A program made the translations under genes and the position numbers. This document shows, one piece after another, positions 6,734-56,986 of a stretch of DNA of 64,000 nt. Each line of letters begins with the position of its first letter. The first letter of the stretch is position 1. This DNA comes from a virus. The notes beneath the pieces were generated by a model, which saw only the letters and a list, made by a program, of their open reading frames with translations, was not told the DNA's origin and did no database searches. Location: IMG/VR virus record IMGVR_UViG_3300033113_000110, positions 797 through 64,796 of that record. One strand, written 5' to 3'.

Positions 6734-6846
6734 GTGTTCTCTTACTCAAGGGGAGGGGTTGTAGCCCTCCCCTGGCAACTACCAATTGTTGAGTAGGGGA
6801 ATATGAGTAGGAGAATGTGTTTCGGCGCGTTCTCTTTTCTGTTTAA
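6734..6846 (+). ncRNA. Structured leader/attenuator, copy A (enclosing stem, hairpin, pseudoknot, terminator)
   Basis: TTCTCTTACTCAA/TTGAGTAGGGGAA, GGGGAGGG/CCCTCCCC, terminator GGAGAATGTGT-TTCG-GCGCGTTCTCT-TTTCT; homologous to 41048-41160. Confidence 0.8.
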
Positions 6847-19534: not shown

Positions 19535-19763
19535 TGATTTGCTCAATATTGGTTCGATTAAAAGTTTCGCGTTACGTTTTTTTTATCATGAAGAAAGGTG
19601 CGTTTCAATTCCAAACTGGTTCGATTAGAAGAAAAATAAAGAAAAACGTATTCTCTTACTCGCTGCCGTTTCAATTCCAAACTGGTTCGATTAGAAGTCT
19701 ATGGAAGGACTTTCGCCCCCGTGTGTTCCGTATGTTTCAATTCCAAACTGGTTCGATTAGAAG
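19535..19763 (-). CRISPR. Cas-less CRISPR mini-array: three perfect 30-bp repeats, one degenerate trailer repeat, three spacers
   Basis: GTTTCAATTCCAAACTGGTTCGATTAGAAG at 19602, 19668, 19734; two 36-nt spacers; degenerate copy ending TGGTTCGATTAAAAG at 19564 gives a 37-nt spacer; an ATTGAAAC 3' end implies minus-strand transcription (type I-B/III-like). Confidence 0.95.
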
Positions 19764-27425: not shown

Positions 27426-30400
27426 ATGCGTCATCAGCGAAGCCTTACAGACGAAGAATTGGCGTTGCTTTCTGAACCTGTTGATCGTCCGACTGCAGAG
27501 TGGGACACATTTCAGGAGACGGGGCAATTGCGTCCAGTAGAGTCATCTCGACCGGAAGGACGAGTGATCGGTGGCCCTTGGGCTGCTTTTCATGGTGTTG
27601 AGGAACTTCCTGCTGATACCTCGCGGGAGGCTGATGATAATCCTTGGTATCCACGTTGGGGTGAGATAAGAAAGCATTTTTGGCCTTCTGCCGGTCGGTT
27701 GTATGATGAGGTGTTGGGGTATGTTTCACCTCAAATTTTATTTGATCGGTATGCTGGCTTTACAGAACAACAACGTGAAATAGGTTCTCTTGTTTCTGAT
27801 GCTGCTCGGTCTCTTTTTTCTTTTGATGTTTCACCACATTTTTTGACAGGTTCAGAGATTGGTACCCTTCCTACGACTCCCGAAGAAGACCTTTCATTTT
27901 ATCGTTCCCGCTTGGAAAGTCAATTTCCCCACACTGCTCCGTCTATGCCAGGTTATGATGATCCTAAAGTGGCGGAAGAATTGGAACTTCGGGAATTGAA
28001 GCGTAAGTACCCTTCACTTACTCAAATGAGTGAAGGGCTTCAGGCTCTAACACCGGTGCATCCTGAACGTGGATGGCAAGGCACACAGGCTCTTTCTCGT
28101 ATGGTTGAGCAAGAACCTTTTGAGTTTGCATTGGATATTGGGCTGTCGGCTACAGGTATCGGTGTGGGTGCTGCGGGTGTCCGTGGAACTGTTCGTGGTT
28201 TTCGCGTAGCTCGGCGTGCTGTGAGTCCATTAGAGGATATAGGAGATGCTCTTAGTGATATTGATGTGTTGACGGGTGAGTTATCGCCTGTAGGACGTTT
28301 ACGCCGTTCTACTGTGGATATAGAAGTTCAAGGGACTCGTTCTTGGGATCTTCAGAATTTATCGAGATTTGGTAGACGTAGAAGGGAATTGGGGACGGGT
28401 GTTCTTGTTTCGCCGACAGAGATCGTTACAGCTTCTCATACGCTTACTGGAAAAACGGATGCGGCTTTTCCGAATATAGAACGAATTACTGCGACAATAG
28501 CTGGTGGTCAACGTATCGATGTTGGAACAATTTCAGGGCTTTCGCCTGAAGCAGATATTGCGGTTTTGGATTTACCGGACTCTGTGGACGCTCCTTTATT
28601 GGATATTGCTGGCGATATTGATGACTTTGATGTGCTTTATGGTAAGTCTCGGATTGGCGAAGGTTATGATTCAGGGACTATTGGTAGGGAGATTGCTCGT
28701 GATCCGATAACGGGTGCGGCATTAAGAGAAACGAGCTATGTCGGTCGAGGTGGGTTGTCAGGGGCAGGTTTGGCTACTGAACGTGGTCAGCTGGCTGGTA
28801 TTTATTTAGGCACTTATGACGATGTGGGTATGTTTGCTGATGCTTCTACGGTTCAGCGTTTTCTGGAGGAAGATCGTCCTACGTTTGACGTTCAAGATTT
28901 TGATAGATCGTGGCATCGGCAACGCTTAATGGATCGTGCTTTGTATAATAGAGAGGGTGCTGAGATTGGATTAGGTGTTCGATCTTTGGATGCTCTTTCA
29001 ACTTTTGGTAGTCAATATGAACTTCAGTCTCGTGATCCTGATGATGATTGGCGTGGTTCGCTTTTGGGTATGCTCGAGGAGATGGAGCAATATAGACGTG
29101 TTGATGAGAGGCGATTGGCCTTAGATGATATACAATCGGCTATGTACGAGGGTTTAGGCTTCTCTCAAGATGCTACGCTTGCTGAAATGTTCCGTGCAGT
29201 TGAAAAAGACCCGGAATTGTTTTTCTATGTCGGTCGCCGCGGTGTTGATGTTGAGGATAGAGCCTATGTTGATCGTGGAGAGACGAAGCGGTATCGCCGT
29301 TGGGAAGAAGCTGGCTCTCCAGTAGATGAATTTGATTTTGAGAAAAGTAGTCGTCTGGTTCCGGCTGGTCAATTTCTTTCGGCTGAAGGTGTGGCTTCGC
29401 AGCACCCGCATGTTGTGAAGCATGGGGTATTCGGGTATGGAAACATTGAGGCTTTGGGGCAGCACTTGAGACAAGTTTTTGAAAAGGCTGGAGATGTTCC
29501 GCTCGATGATTATTCTTTACAGTTGGTGAGAGGTAGACCTTCTGAGATAGATGCTACAAAAATCGGCTATGGGGATGTAACGCGGAGATCGTCTGCTGAT
29601 TTTCTGCCTGGAGCTCAAGGGTTACTGGAATTTGATTTGCCTTCGTTGGATGTTTTACGGGATGTTTATTCTGAAGTGAGAGGGATGCGTTCACATCCGC
29701 GAATCGCTGAAGGACTTTCATGGATACCGGATCCGACGGTTACGAAAGATAGAGAAGGTCAATATATCCCTGTAGGTGAGAGACCGTCAACGGTAGTTGT
29801 TACGGAGCAGCTCTCTGATGAGATGGCGTTGTCTCGTATTCAGATTGCTCGGGGAACACCAGAAGGAATGGTTGTTGAACCGATGCTATTTCATGCCGAG
29901 GGACGGGCAAAGGCTGTTAAACGGAAGCCTATGCATGAGTGGACACATGAGGAATTAAGTAGGGAGACGCTTGTTGGGGAATCTTACTGGGTTCGGCAAG
30001 CTCGTGCTGAGATGTTTAGGAGACGTTTTGAATCTGCTAAGCAGCTCAGTGAACGCTTGGCAAATGCTCCGCCTGGTCAACGGATACCGGTGAGTTATGG
30101 GCGTGCTTTGCAGTCAGAAATTGCGCGAGACTTTGCTGCGGCTAAAAAACAGTCGGAGACTTGGGATTCAGAATACTCTTTTGAAACTGATATTGCCGCT
30201 GCTCATGCGGCTGAGGGGGCGCGGGATCATACGGAGGCTTTTAATCCACAGGACTATAAATCAGAATCTTGGGAGCCGGTAGGCGGTTATGTGGCTGACG
30301 ATGATAAAACAGGACAGTTTTATGAAGGTTGGGTCGATGAGCATGGTGATTTTCAGGATGTTTGGAAAGAAGGCGAGGAAATTGAGAAACAGGAATTGGA

Positions 30401-33400
30401 TGTCTTTTTGGAAGTGGAGGGTGATGATTATACTGAACCGGTGGCGGTCGGTTGGATTGATGAGTATGGAACCCATGATCCTGGTATGGATACTCCCGCG
30501 GGGATTGATGCAAATAAGTTGGCAGTTGATGTCGCTCGTGATGAACAGCGGCGTTTGTCGCCGGAGTCTCAATTGAAGATTTGGGACATGTTTTCGGGGT
30601 ATATTGAGAGACGGGAATATGAGCAGAAATTATTGACTGAGGGGGATCCTGAGTTAGAAGCAGAAATTATTGCTCGTATGGATGTCCGTGATCCTGATTG
30701 GCGTAGAAAGATGCGTGTTGCCTCGCGAGCGGATCGTTCTGTTCAGTCTCCTGGATTGCGTCCTTATTGGGAGCAGGCTGTTGCGGAACAACCGTCTTAT
30801 GGTGTTAGTGATGAGACGCTTTTTCACATGGATATTCCGCGTGAAGAATACTATCGATCTCAACGAAAGCATTGGCAAGTACGTGCCGATGAGCTTTGGT
30901 ATGGTGGGCAATTTGAGGAGTATTATCACCATGTAGAGCCGGTTCGGGAGCGGGCGTATCAATTGCATCGGCAGGCTCGTGATGCTGAATCTGCTGATCG
31001 TATTCAGATTACGGTAGGTGAAAAGGATACTTCGGCAGTGTATCCTGAGAGTGATGTTGATGCACAGAAATATCATTCGGCAGCTGCTATGGGAGTCTAT
31101 TTGCCTGATCCACCAGCAGCGCAATTGGCACAGACGGGAGTTGTTGATATTTCTATCCCGAGGCATGATCGAAGATTTCGTGATGAGACAAGTTTTGAAC
31201 GGGCACCGGATGATTTAGTGCTACGTGGGCAGAGACAGCAGCGTTATGGTGCTGAGCCGATGGATATTTTCATGGAGAATATCCTTTGGAAAGAAGCGGG
31301 TATCGAGGAAACGAAAAGAATCCCGGAAGTGAGTGGGGTAGTAGATGAATTTGTCTATGCATCGGAATTGGATGAAGATGTTGTTCGCTATAAGAAACCA
31401 TCGGGGGCGGTTGAGAGTTTTAATGTACCTGAAGCGGAGGCGTGGCATCGGAGTGATATAGAGGAAGGGCGGCTGGCACGTCCCCAGTATTCTTTTCGAG
31501 ATTCAGACACTGCTCCGCCTGTAGATGTTTTTGATGTTTATGGGTTAACAGAAGGAACGGAGTCTCTCACTTCTTTAGACTTGGCTACCTTGGGTTCGGT
31601 TCGACGGAATGTTTTGGAGAGATATACACCTCGGAGAGTTTGGGAAGCGGCACAGACGGCGGAGTATCGTCAAGCAGCGCGTAGACCTATCGGACAGGGT
31701 ATTGAGGAAGGCTTAACGGCTGATGAATTAAGGGACATCCGTTTGAGAGGTGAACAGATACGGGCTGAAAGGGCGTTTAATGAAGCAACGGCTGAAGGTG
31801 TTGCTTATGAGGCTGAAGCGCGTCGGACTGCTCAGGCTGGTGCTTATCGGATGCAAGAGGATCCGGCTGCAGCAGGAGCGCGTGAAGCGGTAGCAGAAGA
31901 ATTTAGACAGGAAAGGGAACGGGCGGATAAAGCTTTTCGTAAAGTGTGGGATGAAAGTAAGCGGGTTATTCGGGAATCTCCTGGAGAACTTCCCGAGGAA
32001 ATTGCTGATCCGCCGAGTAAGATCAAAAGACGCTATAATTTACACTCGTTGCCTTGGGAAGATGTTGAACCGCTTGACTTGGATACGCCTCGCGCGCGGT
32101 TGGCTGGCTTTGGCGGTATTGAGAGTGAACGGACTTATGGGCTTGAAATTGAACTTATTACAGATTTGACACGTGCGGATATGGAGCGTGAACTTGAGTG
32201 GCAGATGGCACAAGGGTTATCACTGAAGTATGATTTATCGTTGAGGACGGCACGTTCTGAAGTTGCTCTTGAACATCATCCCCCTGCTCATGTTCAGTTT
32301 TCTCGGATGCATCTGCCTGGTGAAATTCAACGTGCAGAAGCGGCGGATTATGAGAGGTACAGATCGCAGTTTACGGGGATGCCCGGTGAGGAAAGAATTC
32401 GTCCGGAAGATTTTGAGACTCGGTACGCACATGAATTGGTTTTCCCGGTAATGCAAGGTGAGGAAGGCTTAGAATTAATCGGTCAAACAGTCCGAAGGCT
32501 TCAGGAATTTGAGACTGAATTGAATACCTCGATGGGTATGCACGTTCATGTGGGTGCCCAGGATCTATCGAACTATGATTTGGTTGGGATTTGGGGAGCG
32601 TTTGCGGCACGTGAAGATGTGATTGATCTTATGCATGAACCGTCTCGGAGAGGTCAAGGTTCTGCTTATGCGGAGACTTTGGTGAGGGAGCGTGGTGAGG
32701 GTTCGTTTACTTCATTGGGTGAATTGCTACGTGCGGAGATGCGAGGTGGCGATCTTTCTCAAGCACAACCTGTCTCGGAATTGGAACGGATGCGTTCTCG
32801 ACTTGAAACTGCGCGTCGGCGGTCTTTGCTTTCATCGGAACGGCGAGAAGGTTTTTTGGATCAGGTAGGCTATGGGCATCGGTATCAGAAATTGAATCTT
32901 AGGGGATTTGAGCACCAGACGATCGAATATCGGCAACCGGCACCGACACTTGATGTTAGCGAGATTGAACACCATATCGGGTTTATCACGAACTTTGTGG
33001 ATGAGTTTTCAGGGAAGCCTTTAGAGTGGGCGATGAGACAGGATCCGAGATTACAACAGGAATATGCTGGTCTCGATTTGGTATTTGAAAGACCTGATGA
33101 AACTGGACAGTTGCTTCTATTCCCGGAAACTCGGACTGAACTTCATTCGGCAGATGAATTGACACCTTCGCAACGACAGGCAATGGAGCATACCTACGGT
33201 GCGGCGGCTGTGATTGCGGGTCCGGGTTCAGGTAAATCCAGAACATTGTTGGAGCGGTTGCGCTACTTGACTGAAACAATTGATGAGCAGTCTGGTAAGC
33301 CTATCGCAAGACCTGAAGATATTCTTACGCTCGTTTTTGGAAAAGAAGCAGAGAAGGATTTGATTGGACGGGGTGGAGAGTTTGGCGGCCCCTGGAACAT

Positions 33401-36400
33401 CTTTACGGTTGACGCTTTTGCGCGTGGCGTTGTTCGTGAGAATTTCGGGGAGCTTGGGTATGCACGGGCACCGGATATTTCTACGAGTACTTTTGAGGAT
33501 TGGCTCTCAGGGAAGCAGATACCAGAATTGGGGCTTTCGGGAGTTGGTGGTGACGGTGTTGAGGCATGGGCAAAACTTTATGAGGAAACTCGGCGTGGTT
33601 TTACTACCGGTAGAGAAGATTATTCGGCTTTACCTGAAGGGTTGCAAGGAGCGATCCGTGATTATCGACTTGAGAGATTTCATGCTGCGGAGATGGATTT
33701 TACTGATGCTATTTCGCAAGCCGGGTATCTTTTAGAGACGAATGAAGCGTTGCGTCAACGGTATCAAGATCGTTTTGAGTTTCTCCAGGTAGATGAATTT
33801 CAGGATATATCGCCGATCCAGTGGCGGTTTCTTCAGAATCTTTCTCCGAATCCTTGGGTTGTTGGTGATCTTGACCAAGGTATTATGTCCTTCCGTGGTG
33901 GCACTGGCACGGTGATGCGTGAGATGATTGAGTCTGGTGTCTCGTTGTATAATATCGAGGAAAATTTCCGCTCGACACCAGAGATTGTTACCGCGGCACA
34001 AGGGTTTATTCGATCGAATCTTGATAGACTTGATGTATCGCAATCAGCAGTGAAACCTTCGGGTGAACCGGTTATGATGGTTGGTGTTTCGCCTTTGACG
34101 ACTGAGCAGCAGGCGATTGCGCGTATTGCTGAACATGTAAGAGAAGGTGAAGAAACAGCGATTTTAACTGCAACGAATCGTGAAAAAGATGTTTTTGAAC
34201 ATGAGTTGGCTGCTGAGCTTCGGGGTCGCGGTTGGGAAGATCAGCAGATAAAAGACCATTTGACCTTTTCTACTATGCATTCTGCGAAGGGGCGGGAATG
34301 GCAGAATGTTTTCCTTCCGATTAATCTCCTTGAATCTGATTTTGGGAATACGCAGAGGCTTTTTACATTGCCTTCGCCTTATGCTCGGACTCCGTTTGAT
34401 TTTGCTGAACAGGAACGGGTCTTTTATGTCGCGATGACACGAGCACAGGAACGGCTTACAATTTTTGGGGATCCGCAGCATCCGTACTATGAACAGGTAA
34501 CTCGTGCGATAAGTGGTGTGGAGGAAGGTGCTGTGCCGTCTTATCTTGAACCACCGGATGATGTCCCGGAAGCTGCTGCGGCTTCAACACGAGGTGGTTT
34601 AGGCGGGTTCTTTGAACGTTTTGGTTCTGGACTTGATAGGTTTTTGCATGGCGATCCGACGCAGCGTACTCCGAGACGGGAAGGACGGCGGCGAGCTCGC
34701 ACTAAAACGGAATTGCATTCAGTGGATGAGCCTTATCGTGAAGGGTCTGATATTCCCGGTTTGGATCAGTTTCTCGATGTAGCAGATAGACATCCGGGTA
34801 TTTTTTATCGGTTTGAGAGTGATGATCCGTCAGGGTATGTTTCACAAGATTTAGCACAGACACATGCTATTTTGAGAGAACATGAAGGACAAGCAAATTT
34901 ACTTCCAGATTCTTTCATGGTGCCGGAGTTCGGGAAATATGATACGCTTATTCGTCCTGCTGGACAGGATCGCTGGAGTTTGTATGATCAGCAGCATGAG
35001 CAGGTAAATCGGGGAGAGAGGGAAGGAACTTTTGATCTTTATAGGGAAGAATATGATAGGGAAACGGATGATTTTGAATTTGTTTATTCGGGACCGGTGG
35101 AGATTGGTTATGTTGGGAGGCGTGGACTTTATGGGCATGTGGATCGTAGCTCTTTTGTAGAGGTGAGTCTAGAAGTGTTAGGGTTTCGGGCATCTCAAAC
35201 GCCTTTGCAACTTTCTGAAACTGACCGACATTTTTCTGTTCATTATGGAACATCGACTCCGTTTCGGCAGTACATAGGTGATCTGTCGGAGGGTGAAGAT
35301 GTTTTTATGTCGCATGGGGTACTGGCTCGGTTGCCAGTGAATTTGGATACTTCTGGAAGTTATGGTCAGCAACGTTATGCTGTTAATCCCAATTTAGGAG
35401 AGTTCATTGAAGCGGGTAACGTAAATTTGAATTGGTTGGCTCAGTCGATAGAGGCTCTCCCGCAGAATGTGAATGCTGATCGGATATGGGGTGATTATCT
35501 CGCGGGGCAACAAGGTTCGGAATTGCTTGGACTTGAGCGGGCTGTTGAGGGGAGTCGGCAATGGTTGGAAGGTAGACATCGTGGAGCGGTTCGTAGGGCG
35601 AGAAGTCGTCGAGTGCGCACTGATTTGCATAGCTTGGATGATTCAGATGATATTAATGCAAAGCTAAACGATATATGGGAAGATGAGCAAAACTTTTATG
35701 ATGCGAATTTTGCTTTAGATCCTCCGACTCCGGTTGAAGCTAACCCGGATATTTTGTTTGGGACTGATCCTACGCCTGAATCCGCTCCTGAATCTGTTCC
35801 TGATATTTTATTTGAATCTGAACTTGAGTCTTTTGCCTCTGATATTTCCGCTGCTCATAAGAGCGTGATGTCGGTAGAACTTGGACGTGGTTTAGGATTG
35901 GGGCAACGGCTTTCTCGGTGGTTCTCTGAAGCAGTGGAGGAGCGTGCTTGGGGTGGACTGACGCATTCAGCGGCGAATATTCTACAGGATGCTGCGACGA
36001 TTAATGTAGCGGCTTCGCTTGCAGTTGAAGGTGTTCGGACGGCGGTCGGGCATGATCTGAATATCGGTAGTCTGATCCATGCGGGTGCATCTACGATGGC
36101 GGCAATGGGGGCAAAGGCTGTTGATGCTCGTTTTGGGTCTCGTGGTGTGCTCCCGGAAGCTCGTGCTGATCTTGGTGCTTTGGCTGATGTTATTCAGGAT
36201 GTCCCGGAAGATGCCGCGGTGCATTTACAACGGATTTTCGAGGAAGCGGGTGCTGGTACTTCACGTTGGCGGCGAGGGAGTCTTGCTGATCAGTTAGAGC
36301 GTTATGACTGGAGTGGTCTTGAGTCGATGTTTGGTGAGTCAGGAGCGGCTTACCTCGATGAATTTGCTTACCAGACACGGCGGTTTGGACAACGAAGCTA

Positions 36401-39400
36401 TGGGACACAACGGAATTGGCAGGAATCATTACTTGATATTTATGCTGGTGGTATTCCACGCGCAACTCGGTATACTTATGATCCGAAATCTGGTGAAGTT
36501 GATTTTGAGATGAAGCGGCGGTGGACGCTCGATAGATTGCTCGAGGCGGGTTCGGATCGGTATCCACATTCACCGATAGGGGCGTGGCATGCTCGTCGTG
36601 AGCAGTTGAGAGAAGACCCGCGTCAAGATATGCTGCGGCATGTCTTTGGACCACTTCAAGGTGAAGATGTTAGACCACACGAGTTGTACATGTTGCTTCC
36701 CGAAGCACGCGGAATTGGACGCTTATTTGGGCGTTTCCATAGACGGCCAGATAATGATTGGGTCATGGAAGATATTGTTCGTGGTGTTGGGGCAACTCGA
36801 TGGGTGGATCGAATTGCTGAACGGAAGGAATTTAGGCGTGAACATCAGAGTATCCTTGAAGAACGGAGACGCTCGCCTGAGCTTTATCAGTGGCAAGACC
36901 CGGCACATTTCTATGGTAAGATTGCCGAGTCGCTCGGTATAGATACCTCGGATTTTGAAGGTTTTGGAGAACGTTTGGGGAGTCCATATTCTGAGTATGG
37001 TCGCTTTTTCTCACGATTGCCTAAAGCTGCGAAGTATCCGGTGATTGGTGGGGGTGCCGCCGTCGGTGGGAAACTTGGTTATGAGTTATTCTTCGGTGGA
37101 GACGATGATGAAGAATTAGTTCTTGATGATCCTGCTGGCTATTCGTTGTCTGCTCGGTATCCGATACTTGGTGCTGTTCAGCGGACACTTCCATATCGAC
37201 GGTTGCGAGCGAGAGCTGAAAATCTTCTCGATGATGTTTATGGTGAGGATTCTTTCCACAGTGAGATGTTGAAATCGATTGGTCTCGGAAAGAAAGGGAA
37301 TTTGCCGTGGGAAGTTAAGCAGACTTTTGTTCAGACTGGACAGATTCATGCTCTGGTTCAGTCGGGGATGCACGTATCGACTTTCTCGAATATCTTGTCT
37401 CGGTATCCGCTGCTTGCAGCACCAGCGGCTTTCTCGGCTGCGCGGGATGTGATCTCGCCGCCGGATGAAAGGGTGGTTGAACCTTCACAGTCTTTTTGGT
37501 CTAAATATCAATTGTCGCCTGATCCGTGGATACCGCGTTGGAATCCCGAACCTCCGACTTCTGGACAGATAAGTGCATTACAGTCGCAAGGGCTATTGGC
37601 TGATGATTATGAACTTGAGATTCCTGAACCGCCGTCGTGGGCTTGGTGGGATCCGGTTGAGAATTATCGTCGTGATGAGGAGGTTCGTGGACAGAAGTTG
37701 GCTACGGAAGGACAGGTGGATCTGCTTGGGTCTTTAGGGTTGTTGCCTGAAGGTTATGACCCTTCTGTTCATGAGCCTTCAGAGATTTCTTTGAATCGTG
37801 GACAACCTGGAATTCAGGATGTTTTGCCATGGTCGGTTTATGGGATGTTTGGTGTTCTGCCGGAGACAGGGTTTTCCTATTTTCGTTCGCGTGGTGATAT
37901 TCAGCGGAAGGATGAGGAAGGGAATTATAGGATTGATGGCTTTGAATTTGATGTTCAAGAGTCTCCGTTCCCTGGTTTCAATCCGTGGCTTGACCCACAT
38001 CCAGAGGGGATTTTGGGTGAAAGTCCCCCTGCTGAGGGGAGTTTTGATTGGGATTTTGGGCATGGATTGTTGGGTATTGGTGTCAATCAGTTTGCTGGAG
38101 TTGGATACGGTATTGGTGGTGGGATTCCTGATCCCGATGCGGAACTATTGGAACTCTATAAGGAACTTGGTATAGATCCGAAGCGGATTACAAGGGAAGA
38201 TGCAAGTAAGCTGATTGAGTATCAGAAGAAACAGCGGGAGGCTCAAGGGAATAAGGCGACGGAGAAACAGATTGTAGCATTGACGAAGATGTATCCGGGT
38301 AAAGATTTGTCTAAATTGACAAAAGAGCAAGCCTCGGAACTCTTTGATGCTTACGAACCGCCGCCTAAAATGGCATCGGATGCACAGCTCACGGCGTTGA
38401 AACGGATGTATCCTGATAAGGATTTGTCCGGGCTGACAATGGCACAAGCTTCAGAACTTTTTGATGCTTATGAACCGCCACCGAAGATGGCAACGGAAGT
38501 GCAGAAAGCGGCGTTGACTCGGATGTATCCCGATAAAGATTTGTCCGGACTGACGATGGTACAGGCTTCGGAACTTTTTGATACTTATGAACGTCCGGCA
38601 CGGAGTCAAGATGCAACGCAAGCTCAATTGGATTACTTAGATCGGCTGCGCGGTGGTGGTTTCGGTGATGTGATGCCTATTGAGGATGTTGATGAATCTG
38701 ATGGGCTAACACGTCAGGAAGTTTCAGCTTTGATAGATTTTGAGAAAGCGAAACGGCGTTCTGCTGAGATTTCTCGTGAGTCGGCTGGACCGACGATGGC
38801 TACTGAATCGCAACTTCGGTATCTTGGACAGTTGAACCCGGAACGATATGGCGGACTTTCTGGTGCTACTGAAGATGTGATGGGTATAGAAGATGTTACT
38901 TTCGATGATGGGATCACGGCTCTTGAAGCGAGAACGCTTTTTGATTATGAGGACGCGGTTCGGAAGTCGCGTGAGTCGGCTGGACCGGCAATGGCTTCGG
39001 ATGCACAATTACAGGTACTGCAACGGATGTTCCCGGATCAGTTCGGGGCATCGAGTGGTGTAGAAGTAGAAGAACCACCGATGATGGGAATCGAGGAGAT
39101 AACTTTCGATGATGGGATTACTCGGCGTGAAGCGGCAGCTCTGTTTGATTATGGTGAGGCTGTACAGAAATCTGCCGGGCCCCCAATGGCATCGGAAGCA
39201 CAAATTGCCGCACTTCAGCGTTATTTCCCGCAGATGTTTGAACCGACTGAACAGGCTGAGGAAGAACCGCTTGTACCGTTGGGGCAGATAGATTTTACAG
39301 ACGGGGTTACGCGTGAGGAAGCACGGCAAGCTTTTCGGCATGTGCCTGAAATGCCGCCGCCGATGGCAACACAGAGACAGATTGATCGTTTAGAAATGGA

Positions 39401-40577
39401 GTTTCCGCATGCTTTCAGGCATGTCGGACGGGTGGATCAGTATCTTCAGACGGGTCAATCCTATGGTGTTGTGAAGTCTTTGGAAGACATCTATGATGCG
39501 GATACTTTTACCGGTATGCTTTTTGATGCACCTACGGGGCAACTTTTCAAGGAGGATACGGTTCGACTTGGAGATTTCAACGCACCAGAGATTAAGCCGG
39601 ACCCGAGTAAGCCGCTCGAATATCAGGAACGTGAAGCGGCACGGGCACGCGAGGCACGAGATGTTTTTCGGTCTATGGTTCAGCGTTTTAATATCGGTCG
39701 AGATGTCGATCAGGAAGGCTATGTGATTCCGATTCAGTATAGGCATGATGCTCAGATGCTTGGTGGATTGGCTCGTGGGAAATATGGTCGGGTCTTAGGT
39801 GATGTTGATTTTGAAGGGGTTGATTATGAGCAGTTTATGATTCAACAGGGGATGGGGTCTGTCTATGGGGCGAGTGTCGAATGGGGTGCACGAGAGATTG
39901 ATCCACTTGAATTGTGGCGGCGGTCTCCGACTTTCTTAGAACAGTTCGGTGAGGGGACGACGGGTCTCCTATGGCAAATTCCTGAAGTGGCTATTGGCGG
40001 TGTTTTTCAAGGTATGGATCCGTTTGATGCTCTTACTGAGACTGTGGCACAGGTGCCGGGTGCTTTGAAGGATATGGCGATAGGACAGGCAAAGCAGACA
40101 TTGACTCAGGCAACGAAGGACTTTTTCAAGGAACGTTTCACGGATGAATTTACGCCGAATAATCTTTCATTCGCTCAGCGGTATATTGGGGATTTCGGTG
40201 GTGTCGGTGAGAAAGTAGGTGTCTTCAAAGATAAAGCGGCTGGCTTCCTTCAAAGTGGATGGGGCGCAGCTATCGCTCCGGCAGCTCTTGCGGCTGGCAC
40301 TGCTATCATTGGAGAACGTAGCTTGGATATGAACTATGCTGAGGTTATACCGACCCGGGAAGATCGGGTGAAGGCGTTTGATCATTATGTTTCGCAGCGG
40401 CAAGAATCTACTACGGGGGGGGCGATGAGTTCTGATGATGCTGCTTTGCGGGTGATAAAGAAGGCGTTGCGTGAAGTGCTTTCTGAATCAGGGCTTGGGT
40501 CTATGGATGATCTATCGACGAAACTGGATCGGAAATTACGGGAATCGGATAGGCGGGGGATTACGCGTCCGAGATAA
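27426..40577 (+). CDS. 4383-aa polyvalent protein in the tape-measure position: trypsin-like protease, amidoligase, UvrD helicase, helical repeats, SNase nuclease
   Basis: Protease about 28290-28870 (VTASH/DIAVL/GLSG); amidoligase about 32120-33010 (YGLEIE/GMHVHVG/RYQKLN/TIEYR); SF1A helicase about 33150-34500 (GPGSGKS/VDEFQD/GDLDQ/NFRS/TMHSAKGREW/ERVFYVAMTRA); SNase about 39460-39880 (IYDADT/VRLGDFNAPE/GKYGRVLG). Confidence 0.9.
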   Translation: MRHQRSLTDEELALLSEPVDRPTAEWDTFQETGQLRPVESSRPEGRVIGGPWAAFHGVEELPADTSREADDNPWYPRWGEIRKHFWPSAGRLYDEVLGYVSPQILFDRYAGFTEQQREIGSLVSDAARSLFSFDVSPHFLTGSEIGTLPTTPEEDLSFYRSRLESQFPHTAPSMPGYDDPKVAEELELRELKRKYPSLTQMSEGLQALTPVHPERGWQGTQALSRMVEQEPFEFALDIGLSATGIGVGAAGVRGTVRGFRVARRAVSPLEDIGDALSDIDVLTGELSPVGRLRRSTVDIEVQGTRSWDLQNLSRFGRRRRELGTGVLVSPTEIVTASHTLTGKTDAAFPNIERITATIAGGQRIDVGTISGLSPEADIAVLDLPDSVDAPLLDIAGDIDDFDVLYGKSRIGEGYDSGTIGREIARDPITGAALRETSYVGRGGLSGAGLATERGQLAGIYLGTYDDVGMFADASTVQRFLEEDRPTFDVQDFDRSWHRQRLMDRALYNREGAEIGLGVRSLDALSTFGSQYELQSRDPDDDWRGSLLGMLEEMEQYRRVDERRLALDDIQSAMYEGLGFSQDATLAEMFRAVEKDPELFFYVGRRGVDVEDRAYVDRGETKRYRRWEEAGSPVDEFDFEKSSRLVPAGQFLSAEGVASQHPHVVKHGVFGYGNIEALGQHLRQVFEKAGDVPLDDYSLQLVRGRPSEIDATKIGYGDVTRRSSADFLPGAQGLLEFDLPSLDVLRDVYSEVRGMRSHPRIAEGLSWIPDPTVTKDREGQYIPVGERPSTVVVTEQLSDEMALSRIQIARGTPEGMVVEPMLFHAEGRAKAVKRKPMHEWTHEELSRETLVGESYWVRQARAEMFRRRFESAKQLSERLANAPPGQRIPVSYGRALQSEIARDFAAAKKQSETWDSEYSFETDIAAAHAAEGARDHTEAFNPQDYKSESWEPVGGYVADDDKTGQFYEGWVDEHGDFQDVWKEGEEIEKQELDVFLEVEGDDYTEPVAVGWIDEYGTHDPGMDTPAGIDANKLAVDVARDEQRRLSPESQLKIWDMFSGYIERREYEQKLLTEGDPELEAEIIARMDVRDPDWRRKMRVASRADRSVQSPGLRPYWEQAVAEQPSYGVSDETLFHMDIPREEYYRSQRKHWQVRADELWYGGQFEEYYHHVEPVRERAYQLHRQARDAESADRIQITVGEKDTSAVYPESDVDAQKYHSAAAMGVYLPDPPAAQLAQTGVVDISIPRHDRRFRDETSFERAPDDLVLRGQRQQRYGAEPMDIFMENILWKEAGIEETKRIPEVSGVVDEFVYASELDEDVVRYKKPSGAVESFNVPEAEAWHRSDIEEGRLARPQYSFRDSDTAPPVDVFDVYGLTEGTESLTSLDLATLGSVRRNVLERYTPRRVWEAAQTAEYRQAARRPIGQGIEEGLTADELRDIRLRGEQIRAERAFNEATAEGVAYEAEARRTAQAGAYRMQEDPAAAGAREAVAEEFRQERERADKAFRKVWDESKRVIRESPGELPEEIADPPSKIKRRYNLHSLPWEDVEPLDLDTPRARLAGFGGIESERTYGLEIELITDLTRADMERELEWQMAQGLSLKYDLSLRTARSEVALEHHPPAHVQFSRMHLPGEIQRAEAADYERYRSQFTGMPGEERIRPEDFETRYAHELVFPVMQGEEGLELIGQTVRRLQEFETELNTSMGMHVHVGAQDLSNYDLVGIWGAFAAREDVIDLMHEPSRRGQGSAYAETLVRERGEGSFTSLGELLRAEMRGGDLSQAQPVSELERMRSRLETARRRSLLSSERREGFLDQVGYGHRYQKLNLRGFEHQTIEYRQPAPTLDVSEIEHHIGFITNFVDEFSGKPLEWAMRQDPRLQQEYAGLDLVFERPDETGQLLLFPETRTELHSADELTPSQRQAMEHTYGAAAVIAGPGSGKSRTLLERLRYLTETIDEQSGKPIARPEDILTLVFGKEAEKDLIGRGGEFGGPWNIFTVDAFARGVVRENFGELGYARAPDISTSTFEDWLSGKQIPELGLSGVGGDGVEAWAKLYEETRRGFTTGREDYSALPEGLQGAIRDYRLERFHAAEMDFTDAISQAGYLLETNEALRQRYQDRFEFLQVDEFQDISPIQWRFLQNLSPNPWVVGDLDQGIMSFRGGTGTVMREMIESGVSLYNIEENFRSTPEIVTAAQGFIRSNLDRLDVSQSAVKPSGEPVMMVGVSPLTTEQQAIARIAEHVREGEETAILTATNREKDVFEHELAAELRGRGWEDQQIKDHLTFSTMHSAKGREWQNVFLPINLLESDFGNTQRLFTLPSPYARTPFDFAEQERVFYVAMTRAQERLTIFGDPQHPYYEQVTRAISGVEEGAVPSYLEPPDDVPEAAAASTRGGLGGFFERFGSGLDRFLHGDPTQRTPRREGRRRARTKTELHSVDEPYREGSDIPGLDQFLDVADRHPGIFYRFESDDPSGYVSQDLAQTHAILREHEGQANLLPDSFMVPEFGKYDTLIRPAGQDRWSLYDQQHEQVNRGEREGTFDLYREEYDRETDDFEFVYSGPVEIGYVGRRGLYGHVDRSSFVEVSLEVLGFRASQTPLQLSETDRHFSVHYGTSTPFRQYIGDLSEGEDVFMSHGVLARLPVNLDTSGSYGQQRYAVNPNLGEFIEAGNVNLNWLAQSIEALPQNVNADRIWGDYLAGQQGSELLGLERAVEGSRQWLEGRHRGAVRRARSRRVRTDLHSLDDSDDINAKLNDIWEDEQNFYDANFALDPPTPVEANPDILFGTDPTPESAPESVPDILFESELESFASDISAAHKSVMSVELGRGLGLGQRLSRWFSEAVEERAWGGLTHSAANILQDAATINVAASLAVEGVRTAVGHDLNIGSLIHAGASTMAAMGAKAVDARFGSRGVLPEARADLGALADVIQDVPEDAAVHLQRIFEEAGAGTSRWRRGSLADQLERYDWSGLESMFGESGAAYLDEFAYQTRRFGQRSYGTQRNWQESLLDIYAGGIPRATRYTYDPKSGEVDFEMKRRWTLDRLLEAGSDRYPHSPIGAWHARREQLREDPRQDMLRHVFGPLQGEDVRPHELYMLLPEARGIGRLFGRFHRRPDNDWVMEDIVRGVGATRWVDRIAERKEFRREHQSILEERRRSPELYQWQDPAHFYGKIAESLGIDTSDFEGFGERLGSPYSEYGRFFSRLPKAAKYPVIGGGAAVGGKLGYELFFGGDDDEELVLDDPAGYSLSARYPILGAVQRTLPYRRLRARAENLLDDVYGEDSFHSEMLKSIGLGKKGNLPWEVKQTFVQTGQIHALVQSGMHVSTFSNILSRYPLLAAPAAFSAARDVISPPDERVVEPSQSFWSKYQLSPDPWIPRWNPEPPTSGQISALQSQGLLADDYELEIPEPPSWAWWDPVENYRRDEEVRGQKLATEGQVDLLGSLGLLPEGYDPSVHEPSEISLNRGQPGIQDVLPWSVYGMFGVLPETGFSYFRSRGDIQRKDEEGNYRIDGFEFDVQESPFPGFNPWLDPHPEGILGESPPAEGSFDWDFGHGLLGIGVNQFAGVGYGIGGGIPDPDAELLELYKELGIDPKRITREDASKLIEYQKKQREAQGNKATEKQIVALTKMYPGKDLSKLTKEQASELFDAYEPPPKMASDAQLTALKRMYPDKDLSGLTMAQASELFDAYEPPPKMATEVQKAALTRMYPDKDLSGLTMVQASELFDTYERPARSQDATQAQLDYLDRLRGGGFGDVMPIEDVDESDGLTRQEVSALIDFEKAKRRSAEISRESAGPTMATESQLRYLGQLNPERYGGLSGATEDVMGIEDVTFDDGITALEARTLFDYEDAVRKSRESAGPAMASDAQLQVLQRMFPDQFGASSGVEVEEPPMMGIEEITFDDGITRREAAALFDYGEAVQKSAGPPMASEAQIAALQRYFPQMFEPTEQAEEEPLVPLGQIDFTDGVTREEARQAFRHVPEMPPPMATQRQIDRLEMEFPHAFRHVGRVDQYLQTGQSYGVVKSLEDIYDADTFTGMLFDAPTGQLFKEDTVRLGDFNAPEIKPDPSKPLEYQEREAARAREARDVFRSMVQRFNIGRDVDQEGYVIPIQYRHDAQMLGGLARGKYGRVLGDVDFEGVDYEQFMIQQGMGSVYGASVEWGAREIDPLELWRRSPTFLEQFGEGTTGLLWQIPEVAIGGVFQGMDPFDALTETVAQVPGALKDMAIGQAKQTLTQATKDFFKERFTDEFTPNNLSFAQRYIGDFGGVGEKVGVFKDKAAGFLQSGWGAAIAPAALAAGTAIIGERSLDMNYAEVIPTREDRVKAFDHYVSQRQESTTGGAMSSDDAALRVIKKALREVLSESGLGSMDDLSTKLDRKLRESDRRGITRPR
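38250..38600 (+). repeat. Three tandem 117-bp (39-aa) repeats in the giant gene, with degenerate copies to about 39400
   Basis: MASDAQLTALKRMYPDKDLSGLTMAQASELFDAYEPPPK. Confidence 0.9.
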
Positions 40578-41047: not shown

Positions 41048-41160
41048 GTATTCTTTTACTCAGGGGTGGGACTGGTAGTTCTACCTTAGCATCTACCAAG
41101 TGTTGAGTAAGGGAATTATGAGTAAGAGAACGTGCTTTGGCGCGTTCTCTTTTCTGTTTA
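41048..41160 (+). ncRNA. Structured leader/attenuator, copy B
   Basis: Homologue of 6734-6846 with compensatory and G-U changes; loop TGGTAG pairs with CTACCA; terminator AGAGAACGTGC-TTTG-GCGCGTTCTCT-TTTCT. Confidence 0.85.
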
Positions 41161-41173
41161 AGGAGGTTTTATT

Positions 41174-41725
41174 TTGAATGGTAATAAACGGAAGGGTCGA
41201 AAAGGGAAGAAATTTACGAAGCAAATCGCAAATCAGATTGCTCATTTTCTTCATGATGGGAAAACGGAAGACGAGATCCGTGCGGAATTAGAGCTTAATA
41301 ATAATGATTTCTGGAAGTGGACCGCGCTTGCTGTCTTTGGGTTGCCGGATACGCGGACACCTGAAGAAGAAATACTTCGGGATGCTATCTTTGATGTGAT
41401 GCTTGGTGAAACATTGCTGAAAAGGGTACTTGAAGTTTCAACTGATACAACAGAGAAGCGGATCATGAAGGTTACGACGCTTTTGAATCTTACGGGTCCC
41501 GAGGCTGCGGCTTTGGAACGGAAAGGTAATAAAAGGTTTGTCGAGGAATTTGAAGGCTCTGCTGTCAATTTGAAAGTGGAGGAAACGATTGAGACGATTC
41601 CGCCAGCTATATCGCTTTTAGAGAAACTTCTGAAATTGGCTGAAGGGAATGTCTCGGTTCAGAATGCTTTGAAACAACTGACACCGTTTAATCCTATTGA
41701 TCCTGAACTCGAGGATGAGGTGTAG
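41174..41725 (+). CDS. terS: Terminase small subunit (probable)
   Basis: N-terminal basic/HTH segment (KKFTKQIANQIAHFLHDGKTEDEIRAEL), upstream of terL; TTG start after AGGAGG. Confidence 0.6.
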   Translation: MNGNKRKGRKGKKFTKQIANQIAHFLHDGKTEDEIRAELELNNNDFWKWTALAVFGLPDTRTPEEEILRDAIFDVMLGETLLKRVLEVSTDTTEKRIMKVTTLLNLTGPEAAALERKGNKRFVEEFEGSAVNLKVEETIETIPPAISLLEKLLKLAEGNVSVQNALKQLTPFNPIDPELEDEV

Positions 41726-42383
41726 TTTTTTTTCTTTTTGCTTTTGATATTTTGCGTTTATGTTCGGCTGATTTGGGTTTTCCTTTTAGTGCTTTGGATA
41801 GTTTTTCGCGTGTTTCTTTGCTGAGTTTCTTTCCATAATTTGGTGCTTTCTCACCTTTTAAGGAATTGGATATTTTTTCGCGTTGTTCTTTGGGCATAGT
41901 TTTTCCATAGTTTGGATTGTCTTTGCCTGTGAGTTTTCCTTTTCTGTTTTTGGACATTTTTTGGATGCGTTCTTTGCTGTGTTTTCTGCCCTTTAGAGAT
42001 TGTGCTATTTTTGCTCTATGTTCGGGGCTGTGTGGACCTCGTTTTTTACCTGTATTTCCTTTGGATATGTTTTTGGAAGCTTCAGGAGAGTATTTAGTAT
42101 GTGTTTCTCCGCCAATTGTTAAGTTGTATCCATTAGGAGCGAGTGTTCTTAGCTTAGCAATATACCATTGTTCTACTGCATCTAATGCTTGAGGTGAAAT
42201 GTGAGGGTATTTGATTATTTGGACATTAAAGTTCTTTTTTCCATGTTTTTTTATGGCTTTGGCTATGTATGTTGAACCACTGTATCCAGCTAAATGATTG
42301 GCAATTCGTTTTTTTAGTTTGATACTTTGTCCAACATATTGTTTATTGTTTATACGGTTTGTTAGAATATAAATACCTCTCAT
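41694..42383 (-). CDS. Free-standing GIY-YIG homing endonuclease with NUMOD3 repeats
   Basis: GIYILTNRINNKQYVGQS...R...E; HSPEHRAKIAQSLKG, LSKETREKLSKALKG; own TATAAT and AAGGAG. Confidence 0.92.
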   Translation of the reverse strand: MRGIYILTNRINNKQYVGQSIKLKKRIANHLAGYSGSTYIAKAIKKHGKKNFNVQIIKYPHISPQALDAVEQWYIAKLRTLAPNGYNLTIGGETHTKYSPEASKNISKGNTGKKRGPHSPEHRAKIAQSLKGRKHSKERIQKMSKNRKGKLTGKDNPNYGKTMPKEQREKISNSLKGEKAPNYGKKLSKETREKLSKALKGKPKSAEHKRKISKAKRKKTTPHPRVQDQ

Positions 42384-42441: not shown

Positions 42442-43965
42442 ATGGCACGGATATCTGATTATAAACTTTATGGAAATGGACGGAAAGCGTGGCGGTGTCG
42501 TGACCTTGAGCTTATGCTTGTCGGTGGGGCGAACACAGGTAAAACGCTTTGTAATATGATGTTTGCGCATGTTTTTGCCCAGAAATATCCTGGAAGCCGG
42601 ATACTTTTTGTTCGGAAATCTTTGGCGGATCTTGTCAGAAATGCTGTTGCGACTTATGAAAAAGTGATTCTTCCTTGTCCACTTGATGATCCGTCTTGTC
42701 CAGTTATATTAAAAACTACGAAAGAAGGTTCTTCGTATTATTTATATAAGGAGACAGGATCGGAAATTCATCGAGGTGGGATCAAAGATTCAGGCTCGAT
42801 ACTTTCTGGTGAGTATGATTTGATCATTGTTATTCAGGCGGAGCAGATAGATGAAGATGATTGGGAAGTTTTCTTGACGCGTCTCGGACGGGGTGCGGGT
42901 GCGAATGCTCCTTATGCTCAGATCAGAGGGGACGCAAACCCGCATATCCTTGGTATGATGCACTGGATTATGAGACGGAAGGGGATGACGCTTTACAAAT
43001 TCTTTAGGGAGGATAATCCGGCTCTTTACAATCAAGAAACGGGTGAAATTACGAAGCTCGGTATTCAGACAGAGGATTTTCTGGATAGGCTTACGGGAAC
43101 GAGGCGGAAGCATCTTCGGGAAGGGGAATGGACAGGATCGGATCGGATGGTCTTTCCTGAATACAACGATGATATTCATGTGATTGATTTGGAGTTTCTC
43201 CAACGTCTTGATGTGAAATTTGAAAAGTGGTACCTCGGTATGGATTGGGGGTATTCTATTGATCCTGGCTCTTTGACGCTTTATGGGCTGACAGAACCTT
43301 CAACACCTGACTTTTTTGATGAGAAGGCTTTGAGTCAGGAATTTAGTATTCAGCCTGAAGATTTGGATGAGATATTGGGGAGTTTGTTTGAGTTGCCATG
43401 CTTGGTTGCGATGCGGCAGACTTATAGGCTTGGGGAGTTGACACCTTTTTGGCGGAGACGGGCAATTGCGTATGATCGTTGGGTTCGGAGATATTTTGGC
43501 GGGTATGTTCACAAAATGATTTGTGATAAGTCTCGGCCGGATAATATTGAGGAGATGCGGTTAGGGGAATTGCCTGCTGTGAAGACGGACGGAGCACAGG
43601 GGAGTATTCGGGAAAACATTAATGCGATACAGACTCGGTTAGAGCGGAATACGCTTTTTTTCCTTCGGAATAATCTTGATGGTCGTGATGAAATTTTGGA
43701 ATCGCAGTATAAACCGCTTTGTACGGCTGATGAGATGCCTCATTATGAGAATCCTAAGCCGAAAAAACTCGCTCGGAAGTTGCCGGATCCGGTCGGTGCT
43801 AATCATGGAATTGATGAGCTTGGTTATATTTGTCGTGATCTTCATAATTTCTTGGATAATACTGCTGTGGAAGTTGATGTTTTTTCTGGACAACAGGTTT
43901 TGGATACTCGGTTGTCGATTGAAAAGCCGCCGCCACCAGCGCGATGGCGAGGGTATATTAATTAG
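42442..43965 (+). CDS. terL: Terminase large subunit (PBSX-like)
   Basis: Walker A VGGANTGKT; RKS...L; GDANP coupling motif; nuclease GMDWG...DP, CDKSRP, NHGIDELGY. Confidence 0.88.
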   Translation: MARISDYKLYGNGRKAWRCRDLELMLVGGANTGKTLCNMMFAHVFAQKYPGSRILFVRKSLADLVRNAVATYEKVILPCPLDDPSCPVILKTTKEGSSYYLYKETGSEIHRGGIKDSGSILSGEYDLIIVIQAEQIDEDDWEVFLTRLGRGAGANAPYAQIRGDANPHILGMMHWIMRRKGMTLYKFFREDNPALYNQETGEITKLGIQTEDFLDRLTGTRRKHLREGEWTGSDRMVFPEYNDDIHVIDLEFLQRLDVKFEKWYLGMDWGYSIDPGSLTLYGLTEPSTPDFFDEKALSQEFSIQPEDLDEILGSLFELPCLVAMRQTYRLGELTPFWRRRAIAYDRWVRRYFGGYVHKMICDKSRPDNIEEMRLGELPAVKTDGAQGSIRENINAIQTRLERNTLFFLRNNLDGRDEILESQYKPLCTADEMPHYENPKPKKLARKLPDPVGANHGIDELGYICRDLHNFLDNTAVEVDVFSGQQVLDTRLSIEKPPPPARWRGYIN

Positions 43966-44086
43966 AGTAGTTCTAATTGTCCGATATATTTCATTCTGCG
44001 GTTTTCATAGGCTGTCTTGTAGGATTCTGCTATCTCGTAACCTATTCCGTTTCTTTACCTTTGCTTGGCAAAGATTAGTGCATAGC

Positions 44087-44269
44087 ATCCGTATTGGCGT
44101 GTGCTATGCACAGCCAAACATCTATTTATGATACGCAAACGAGTATCGTTCGTAGGTTCGTTTATCACTCTGTCAGGAGTGTAGGTAGGGTGCAACACGA
44201 GGCGTATTGCACTGACAGCCCTACCAACGAACTTAGGAATATTATACGATATTTAGTGTAAAATATCAA
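44087..44269 (-). ncRNA. Sigma70 promoter plus pseudoknotted RNA, copy X2, converging on terL
   Basis: TTGATA-17-TATAAT; GTTCGTT/AACGAAC, GGTAGGG/CCCTACC, CTGTCAG/CTGACAG, TGCAA/TTGCA; later a 10-bp hairpin GTGCATAGCA/TGCTATGCAC. Confidence 0.75.
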
Positions 44270-45861
44270 GAGAAAATTAACAGACAGGTTTTTAGAAGAA
44301 AAAGAGTATCTGAATCCAATAACTACAAGGAATTTACAATCCTCCTATTTTCTTACCTATATCATATAAGATAAACTCTTTATTTACAAGGGTTTAAGGC
44401 ACTTTCTACAACTTATTGCAAGTCCAAAACGACTAATTCCGTTTTCTTTTGCTTTGAGATACTCGGATGCGGATGTAACTTGGATGCCATATCCGTATGA
44501 ATGGCAATCAGGAAGCCGTTGTAAGTTGGGATCATTGATGTCTCGTATTTCGTCGAGATTGGGTATTGGGTTGTTCATGGGAGTTCTCCTTTTTGGATTT
44601 ATGAGAGAGATTGGCTGGCTCGGAACCATCCGATCCGTGGAAGTCCGTTAGGGAAGCTATGGTATGTTCCGAACCAAAGTAATACTTGGTGTGAATAACT
44701 TGTGCCGTAGGGTTTAACCTCGAATCGTTTGCCCCACCCTTGATTTTTCATCTTTTTCTCCTATTTACCAGATGCTGGTGATGTCGATGAGTTCGTTGTT
44801 CTTGAATATGCCCATGTATCGTTTGTCTTCGGTGAAAGTTTCGCAACTGAATTGGGATTTTACACTTACGGAGTTTGTTCCGGCGATTGTAACGTCACTT
44901 TTGTTATAGAACAGATGGGCGACGCACTTCTCGGAATTGTTGAAGATTAGTTCTACTCCATTCTCATCGTAGTCCGCGATTACGATGGCGGTGAGTTTCA
45001 TGGGCACTCGGGTTTCGGTATTTTTAGACATTGCTGGTTTTCCCCTCAGTCATTGTGTTGTAATTTTCAAAGGCATATTTTAGGTATTCGGGAACAATGT
45101 ATGTCCGAAGGGTATCACCTTCATAGTTTCGGAAGATTTTGACTTCTTTGTGACGAAGAACCCAATTGGGGTTGTCCCTTACCCAATGCCATTTGCCTTT
45201 TAGATCAGCAAAAAGTTGTGAGGGGTTGAATCCTCTCTTTTTCATGATGCGGGTGATAGCTGCTTTTATGCCTGAGACGGACTTTTTTGAGTTGATGCTG
45301 ATGACTTCTTGGATCTCGGAGCCGTCTCCAGAAGTTATTACGCAAAAAGTTTGGAGGTTTTCTGGTCTGCTCATGGTCTCTCCTATCCTGTAGGTGGGTG
45401 GTAAATTTCAGCTGTCTTGGTGAAGAATTCTTTATCTTCGTCGCTGATGTCTTCCCATTTGGTTCTTGCGCGATAGAGGTGTGCCCGACCGAACTTAACG
45501 AAAATGTCTTGTGTTGCGAGGAAAAGAGCTTCGCCGAGTTTTTCGGATGTGCTGAGGTTCTTCGGTGATCTTGGTGTGGAATTGACAACCCAGTAGAGTC
45601 CATTCCATTGTACGACGGTGCCGGGAATGAGGGTTGTGTGTAAACCTTCGGCAGTTTCAACGTCTATGCGTCCTGGGATTGTATAGGGATCACCTGTTTT
45701 TAGGCATTCAGGGAGTTTGTCGGTTTTGATGAGCGTGCTCATAGGTCTCCTTTATCGTTGATATAGGGAGACATGCGGTCCCCCTATATTGACTATTAGT
45801 TTTTGTGCCCGGCGGCGTTATTAGACAGGCACCGGGCGGTATTGCCTAAAATCCTGTCTAA

Positions 45862-56874: not shown

Positions 56875-56986
56875 TTGTTTTAATAGAAAATTTGTGATAT
56901 AATAATGTTCTCACTCTGGTGGGGCTTTGGCGAGCCTCACCGTCTACGCCAATAGGGAGTGAGAATCTTTTCTGAGTGAGGATACC
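56875..56986 (+). ncRNA. Promoter plus pseudoknotted leader, copy C, upstream of the second GIY-YIG gene
   Basis: TTGTTT-17-TATAAT with TGn; GTTCTCACTCT/GGAGTGAGAAT, GGTGGGGCT/AGCCTCACC, loop TTGGCG pairs with CGCCAA; a second GAGTGAGGA overlaps the SD. Confidence 0.8.

Follow-up and report, generated by a model that had tools for sequence, protein, structure and literature searches.

The window analyzed here, a stretch of 64,000 nt of phage DNA, carries at its terminase locus the large terminase gene terL on the plus strand and, convergent on it from the minus strand, a compact structured RNA element designated X2. The terL stop codon lies 190 nt beyond the X2 fold. The features of the locus are as follows, in window coordinates:

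42442-43965, plus strand: terL, 507 aa, matched to phrog_2 with E=1e-15
43918-43941, minus strand: terminator-like site inside the last terL codons, the sole one on this strand
44059-44111, minus strand: 10-bp hairpin (arms 44111-02/44087-78) and a small hairpin (44073-59)
44130-44153, minus strand: conserved 3′ extension, the second ACGAAC and then GAUAC-UCGUUUGC-GUAUC
44154-44234, minus strand: X2 core fold, 81 nt, three-way junction plus pseudoknot, MFE z = -5.65
44156-44162, minus strand: 3′ strand of helix P0, AACGAAC, with family covariation
44166-44181, minus strand: hairpin PD, CACU 44181-78 with AGUG 44169-66
44184-44225, minus strand: arm 1 (PA, a 7-nt bulge and PC), with family covariation
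44226-44232, minus strand: 5′ strand of P0, GUUCGUU, pairing with AACGAAC 44162-44156
44241-44269, minus strand: X2 promoter of sigma-70 type, 11 of 12 consensus matches

Directly upstream of terL, a GIY-YIG/NUMOD3 homing endonuclease gene occupies 41694-42383 on the minus strand; the two closest terL relatives have no such gene at the corresponding position. Upstream of the terminase genes, a giant ORF of 4383 aa with amidoligase and UvrD-helicase Pfam matches (27426-40577; L124 1-8136) is kept in relatives.

The promoter of X2, originally predicted as TTGATA-17-TATAAT, is present on the minus strand (-35 hexamer 44269-44264, 17-nt spacer, -10 hexamer 44246-44241), and the fold starts 7 nt past it, with the predicted transcription start at an A at ~44234. 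The minimum free energy fold of X2 is a three-way junction closed by P0, before which only 2 nucleotides are free at the 5′ end. One arm consists of PA (GGUAGGG 44225-19/CCCUACC 44190-84), the 7-nt bulge and the PC hairpin (44211-44191, 9 bp with a CCU loop), and the other is PD. The bulge CUGUCAG (44218-12) pairs with the PD loop CUGACAG (44176-70) to form PB, a 7-bp bulge-loop pseudoknot, by which the helices are interleaved in the order PA-PB-PC-PA′-PB′. The PA and PB helices listed in the original prediction and the duplicated ACGAAC strand (44161-44156 and 44153-44148) are all found as described, whereas P0 and PD had been missed and the conserved unit (~44277-44059) exceeds the span that had been marked.

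X1, at 20150-20070, had been proposed as a second element with the same helix order, and it proved to be a true paralogue: GGATAGG/CCTATCC and TTGTCAG/CTGACAA replace the corresponding X2 helices by compensatory changes, order and spacing are kept, and its minimum free energy fold is likewise a three-way junction (z = -3.27). Model R1, a covariance model derived solely from X2 and without the pseudoknot, found X1 in a search of the window at 27.2 bits (E=5e-6). A third promoter-driven copy, X3 (17186-17283, minus strand), is followed by minus-strand ORFs and displays by eye a TATAAT, then a GAAGUUU...AAACUUC closing helix, a CUUAUAG bulge and a GC-rich hairpin; on the family model R2, for which X2 was in the training set, X3 scored 11.7 bits only. 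Three shorter elements without PC, by eye enclosed H-type pseudoknots, occur on the plus strand at 6742-6796, 41057-41109 and 56909-56964, each following promoter-like sequence, with a strong shared terminator after two of them. R2 gave none of the three a significant score, and we do not claim them for the family. A descriptor scan additionally returned an enclosed pseudoknot candidate, TCCGTTC...GAGCGGA, at genome positions 66497-66552 (plus strand), outside the window and near the right end of the 68.4-kb genome. A motif scan of IMG/VR for further phage copies yielded chance matches only, none of them matched by the model.

The host of the phage is indicated by a CRISPR mini-array whose repeat is identical to those of arrays in two Candidatus Poribacteria MAGs, linking the phage to a host in this uncultivated phylum of sponge symbionts. 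The mini-array (19596-19763, 30-nt repeat, 66-nt period) is without cas and, on the minus strand, follows X1 at a distance of ~300 nt. When 151 genomes of this one phylum were searched with R1, 58 matches at E<=0.01 were obtained in 21 of them, the best scoring 85.3 bits and E values reaching down to 6.5e-23. Since host matches reach 85 bits against 27 bits for X1, X2 is much closer to the host copies than to X1; it is ~75-83% identical to the nearest of those sampled. X2 itself scored 113 bits with R1 and 94.7 bits with R2, among whose training sequences it is. Host loci for inspection of context were picked from the best matches.

The family alignment comprises 32 matches (30 distinct), in which 94.9% of the cells are standard pairs as compared with 34-44% when the partners are slid; both sides change in 31 of the 34 pairs, and 0 of 500 shuffles reached the observed values. 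P0 is paired in 94.7% of cells with both-side changes in 7/7 pairs, PA in 95.7% with 7/7 pairs covarying, PC in 92.2% with 8/9 and PD in 96.6% with 3/4, these nested helices being counted on a model-fitted alignment, so that the counts lean towards the model structure. PB is paired in 97.1% of cells with 6/7 pairs covarying, though it is absent from the search model. X2 carries the five helices in register, with standard pairs at 34/34 family base pairs, and shares with the Poribacteria leaders the fold, the promoter spacing, the duplicated closing strand and the GAUAC extension. We regard it as established almost beyond doubt that X2 is a member of this host-wide RNA family. The family is a well supported, structured RNA that is uncatalogued: Rfam 15 covariance models gave no match at gathering score in the window, none to 43900-44450 at E up to 10 and none to the element in 15 host loci, and a literature search for Poribacteria RNA motifs and IS1595 antisense RNA returned nothing relevant.

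Coupling of the fold to its promoter is likewise a family property. Of 31 distinct upstream regions, 26 have a promoter with at least 9/12 consensus matches, and in 24 of these 26 (24/31 in total), compared with 2 of 128 control windows, exactly 6 nt separate the end of the -10 hexamer from model position 1, as in X2. This fixed distance indicates that the family RNA begins at the transcription start. The strand transcribed from this promoter is also favored by the alignment itself, in which G-U cells outnumber A-C cells by 67 to 21.

The core is followed across the family by a 3′ extension, ACGARC-NN-ACGARCGAUAC...GUAUC (44161-44130 in X2), whose sequence is conserved family-wide and which permits two mutually exclusive hairpins, H1 (44152-46/44142-36) and H2 (44147-43/44134-30). 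In X2, pairing of P0 with the first ACGAAC together with H1 has a computed energy of -39.0 kcal/mol, and pairing of the 5′ strand with the second ACGAAC together with H2 has one of -36.5 kcal/mol, a gap of 2.5 kcal/mol. H1 pairing is possible at 92.6% and H2 pairing at 73.1% across the family, neither with significant covariation, and a conformational switch between the two hairpins is possible. Such an arrangement would suit an orphan small-molecule riboswitch aptamer in which the duplicated closing strand serves as the expression platform controlling read-through. The three-way junction, the long-range loop contact, the P1-like closing helix, the duplicated 3′ strand with its two closely spaced folds and the position of the module at the 5′ end of host mRNAs all fit this reading, and purine and THF riboswitch aptamers similarly combine a P1-like closing helix, two arms in long-range contact and alternative 3′-strand pairing. 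However, the junction nucleotides of the family vary in sequence and length, with the top residue at no more than 53%, and the downstream genes share no pathway, which together make a small-molecule aptamer unlikely. H1 and H2 moreover lack significant covariation, and X2 differs from the purine and THF aptamers in that its junction has no conserved pocket, the gene set is not coherent and no Rfam family matches; we consider the riboswitch reading highly improbable.

Blastn similarity of X2 to the host copies extends from ~44277, in the -35 region, to ~44059. Near its distal end, the hairpin GUGCAUA...UAUGCAC is common to X2 and a subset of the host copies, in which it is followed by a ribosome site, GAGG, and an ATG start codon, both missing from X2. 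The UAAUCUUU tail after the 10-bp hairpin bears only a weak resemblance to a terminator, and the terminator scan did not call it; hairpin and tail may stop some X2 transcripts. The sole downstream minus-strand ORF of at least 30 aa has its GTG start within the fold and is 47 aa long (44198-44055), in line with the original statement that no convincing ORF follows, and tblastn searches of the phage with the IS1595 transposases and host small ORFs returned no match under E=0.1. A decayed cargo after 44059, considered from a by-eye likeness to the host small ORF MAKK..., was rejected, as tblastn was empty and the blastn similarity ends at ~44059. No convincing terminal inverted repeats flank X2. 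With its own promoter, no ORF and a course towards terL, X2 is the stand-alone convergent RNA that had been envisaged, and we are confident that it represents an orphan, cargo-less copy of the family.

In lacking a downstream gene X2 is unlike the Poribacteria leaders. At most host loci a same-strand ORF starts 40-80 nt, sometimes up to ~500 nt, downstream. A Pfam scan of 32 downstream proteins identified Schlafen/AlbA_2, RmuC, an N6/N4 DNA methylase fused to HNH, a type III modification subunit, a MotA/ExbB-like protein, DUF805 and an IS1595 transposase; many others had no Pfam match, no TnpB was seen among the 32, and no common pathway emerged.

Three host genomes contain multiple copies, with 17 matches in G029, 8 in G047 and 4 in G037. 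Eleven copies were fetched from them, nine of which belong to multi-copy repeats (four from G029, two from G047 and three from G037), and all nine reside in IS1595 elements (loci L133 1426-2755, L153 1419-3037 and L180-L184). In each, the leader is placed just inside one terminal inverted repeat and aimed at the 3′ end of a convergent DDE transposase gene, with 66-353 nt between the leader and the transposase stop codon downstream on the opposite strand. The two other G047 copies, which score unlike the G047 repeat, have no convergent transposase frame. In the G029 element the terminal-repeat core recurs as a direct copy between leader and transposase stop, and the leader there looks like a ~200-nt cassette bracketed by two left-end repeats. 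The nine convergent copies establish that convergent, cargo-less use of the module occurs in active host elements, and the layout of X2 has its precedent there. It is also to these IS1595-borne host copies that X2 is nearer, rather than to its phage paralogues.

In the two closest terL relatives (75% and 71% identical; L122 and L123), the 10 kb flanking terL on each side are free of copies, and in one relative terL ends with an ordinary terminator; a protein-pattern scan of IMG/VR for terL relatives found none. Since neither relative has it near terL, X2 is no conserved component in the control of terminase, and its acquisition could be recent and neutral. This absence and its likeness to the host copies mark X2 as lineage-specific and as acquired from the gene pool of the hosts. 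An acquisition of this kind might have no function at all: a host promoter-leader cassette, possibly from an IS1595 end, could have recombined beside terL and not yet decayed. Such a neutral relic would account for the lack of copies in L122 and L123 and of a cargo gene after X2; the closeness to the host (85 bits against 27 for X1) fits recent transfer, and the homing endonuclease gene inserted beside terL indicates that the region accepts mobile DNA. On the other hand, the 11/12 promoter and all 34 pairs are intact despite an identity of only ~75-83% to the nearest host copies. What has been retained corresponds to the RNA unit, from promoter to leader end, with no remnant of terminal repeat, transposase or small ORF, and the phage uses the related leaders X1 and X3 elsewhere. 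We judge a relic unlikely, though it deserves serious weight.

Action in trans was also weighed. As a decoy or sponge, X2 would titrate a host or phage factor that recognizes the leader family and so shift the host defense genes and mobilome, or the leader-bearing operons of the phage. Its consensus-like sequence (94.7 bits on R2, with X2 in the training set) and its lack of output in cis are in keeping with such a role, as is the finding that host copies precede Schlafen/AlbA_2, RmuC, DNA methylase-HNH, type III modification subunit and MotA/ExbB-like genes. But no factor is known, and the two CRISPR-linked host genomes carry only zero and one family copy. The original suggestion of a trans-acting small RNA with phage targets is not supported: X2 is no more complementary to the remainder of the genome than shuffled sequence is, leaving no excess complementarity to other phage transcripts. 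A decoy is given very little probability.

The reading we prefer, to which we give about even odds, is that X2 is a cargo-less, promoter-driven copy of the host family making a non-coding RNA in a probable antisense or convergent relation to terL. The RNA would begin at the transcription start and, after two free nucleotides, P0 would close the three-way junction, with the PA-bulge-PC arm and the PD arm locked together by the 7-bp bulge-loop pseudoknot. Such a knotted, base-paired 5′ end would make for a long-lived non-coding RNA. Read-through beyond the conserved unit would lead to antisense or convergent transcription over the 3′ end of terL, and terminase expression could be damped while the host-type promoter is active. 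If read-through ended at the terminator-like site at 43918-43941, the transcript would measure ~310 nt and overlap terL by ~40 nt; this site is weak evidence, the one minus-strand terminator-like site found, against 0.4 expected by chance, being within chance expectation. That X2 has a functional antisense or convergent role is, in our estimate, somewhat less probable than that it has none.

As to what the module itself does, a generic role in shielding the 5′ end or setting the fate of the transcript is favored as a model by the helix placed 2 nt from the 5′ end, the sequence-agnostic junctions and the use of the same module in coding, non-coding and antisense settings. Genes for RNase J and RNase E/G are present in the hosts, which makes 5′-shielding plausible. 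A simple hairpin would suffice for 5′ protection, and the elaborate knot hints at an additional partner. By analogy with the module aimed at the 3′ end of the IS1595 transposase gene, and given the two near-isoenergetic ACGAAC pairings, the originally proposed switch controlling antisense transcription into terL is plausible. More speculatively, the knot might be a bacterial counterpart of exoribonuclease-resistant RNAs, namely a portable promoter plus a cap-like knot that would shield transcripts from RNase J/E, with X2 as a long-lived antisense or decoy RNA borrowed by the phage, throttling terminase or titrating a factor that reads the leader on host defense genes; we think this improbable.

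The structured RNA family described here is common to Poribacteria chromosomes, host insertion sequences and a phage, and X2 indicates that the module can stand as a free RNA gene, beyond a role as mRNA leader. The function of the fold thereby becomes separable from downstream coding sequence, and the 81-nt core is a compact object for testing the knot. Were the convergent layout functional, it would constitute an antisense device common to insertion sequences, where it would face the transposase, and to a phage, where it would face the terminase.

Among known RNA classes, the helix order of X2 first brought to mind a theta, HDV-like ribozyme, since PA-PB-PC-PA′-PB′ matches P1-P2-P3-P1′-P2′ of the nested double pseudoknot, and a minimal self-cleaving ribozyme of this kind is found in gut phages. 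Theta ribozymes resemble X2 in interleaving P1/P2-like helices around an intervening hairpin and in their size of ~60-80 nt, and they too are carried by phages, some as isolated copies in non-coding DNA (Kienbeck et al. 2024, PMC10879173). In the published motif, P3 is 3 bp (ACC/GGT), L3 is U-CC-ACGY and carries the CC of a 2-bp P1.1 with a GG partner, at least 11 nt separate P1′ from P2′, and the catalytic C is first in a single-stranded J4/2 (PMC10879173). X2, in contrast, has a PC of 9 bp with a CCU loop and no P1.1 partner; its strands are only 7 nt apart, with 4 of the 7 nt paired in the covarying PD, there is no free J4/2 with a catalytic C, and a closing helix and PD are present in addition. 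No HDV-family Rfam match was obtained even at E up to 10. Self-cleavage, for which an assay had originally been suggested, is not supported for X2, as HDV-like features and Rfam ribozyme matches are both wanting. The theta ribozyme was rejected on the published motif together with the covariation of PD, and we retain it as extremely unlikely.

The position of X2 beside terL raised the comparison with the prohead or packaging RNA (pRNA) of phi29, in which bulge and loop would pair between molecules into a motor ring. The helix order of X2 resembles that of pRNA, an A helix, a C helix, a CE bulge, an E hairpin and a D hairpin with a complementary loop. The family, however, is chromosomal in hosts, where it heads unrelated genes and IS elements; the large terminase of the phage is ordinary, and Rfam 15 gave no match of any kind, a search that covers pRNA if that release holds such a family. 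A pRNA-like ring RNA was rejected on the chromosomal host contexts and has practically no chance of being correct.

Parallels in layout are provided by cis-antisense RNAs directed at the end or the start of a gene, namely the lambda OOP RNA, which is cis-antisense to the 3′ end of cII, and the IS10 RNA-OUT. Like X2, both are short, structured, promoter-driven and without an ORF, and converge on a neighboring gene; X2 differs in starting 190 nt outside terL, so that overlap would need read-through. For the 5′ end itself, the ompA 5′ stem-loop is a 5′-terminal stabilizer and the knotted RNAs of flaviviruses are exoribonuclease-resistant. X2, likened to these by anatomy, has no more than 2 nt ahead of its structure, which is a three-way junction with a pseudoknot.
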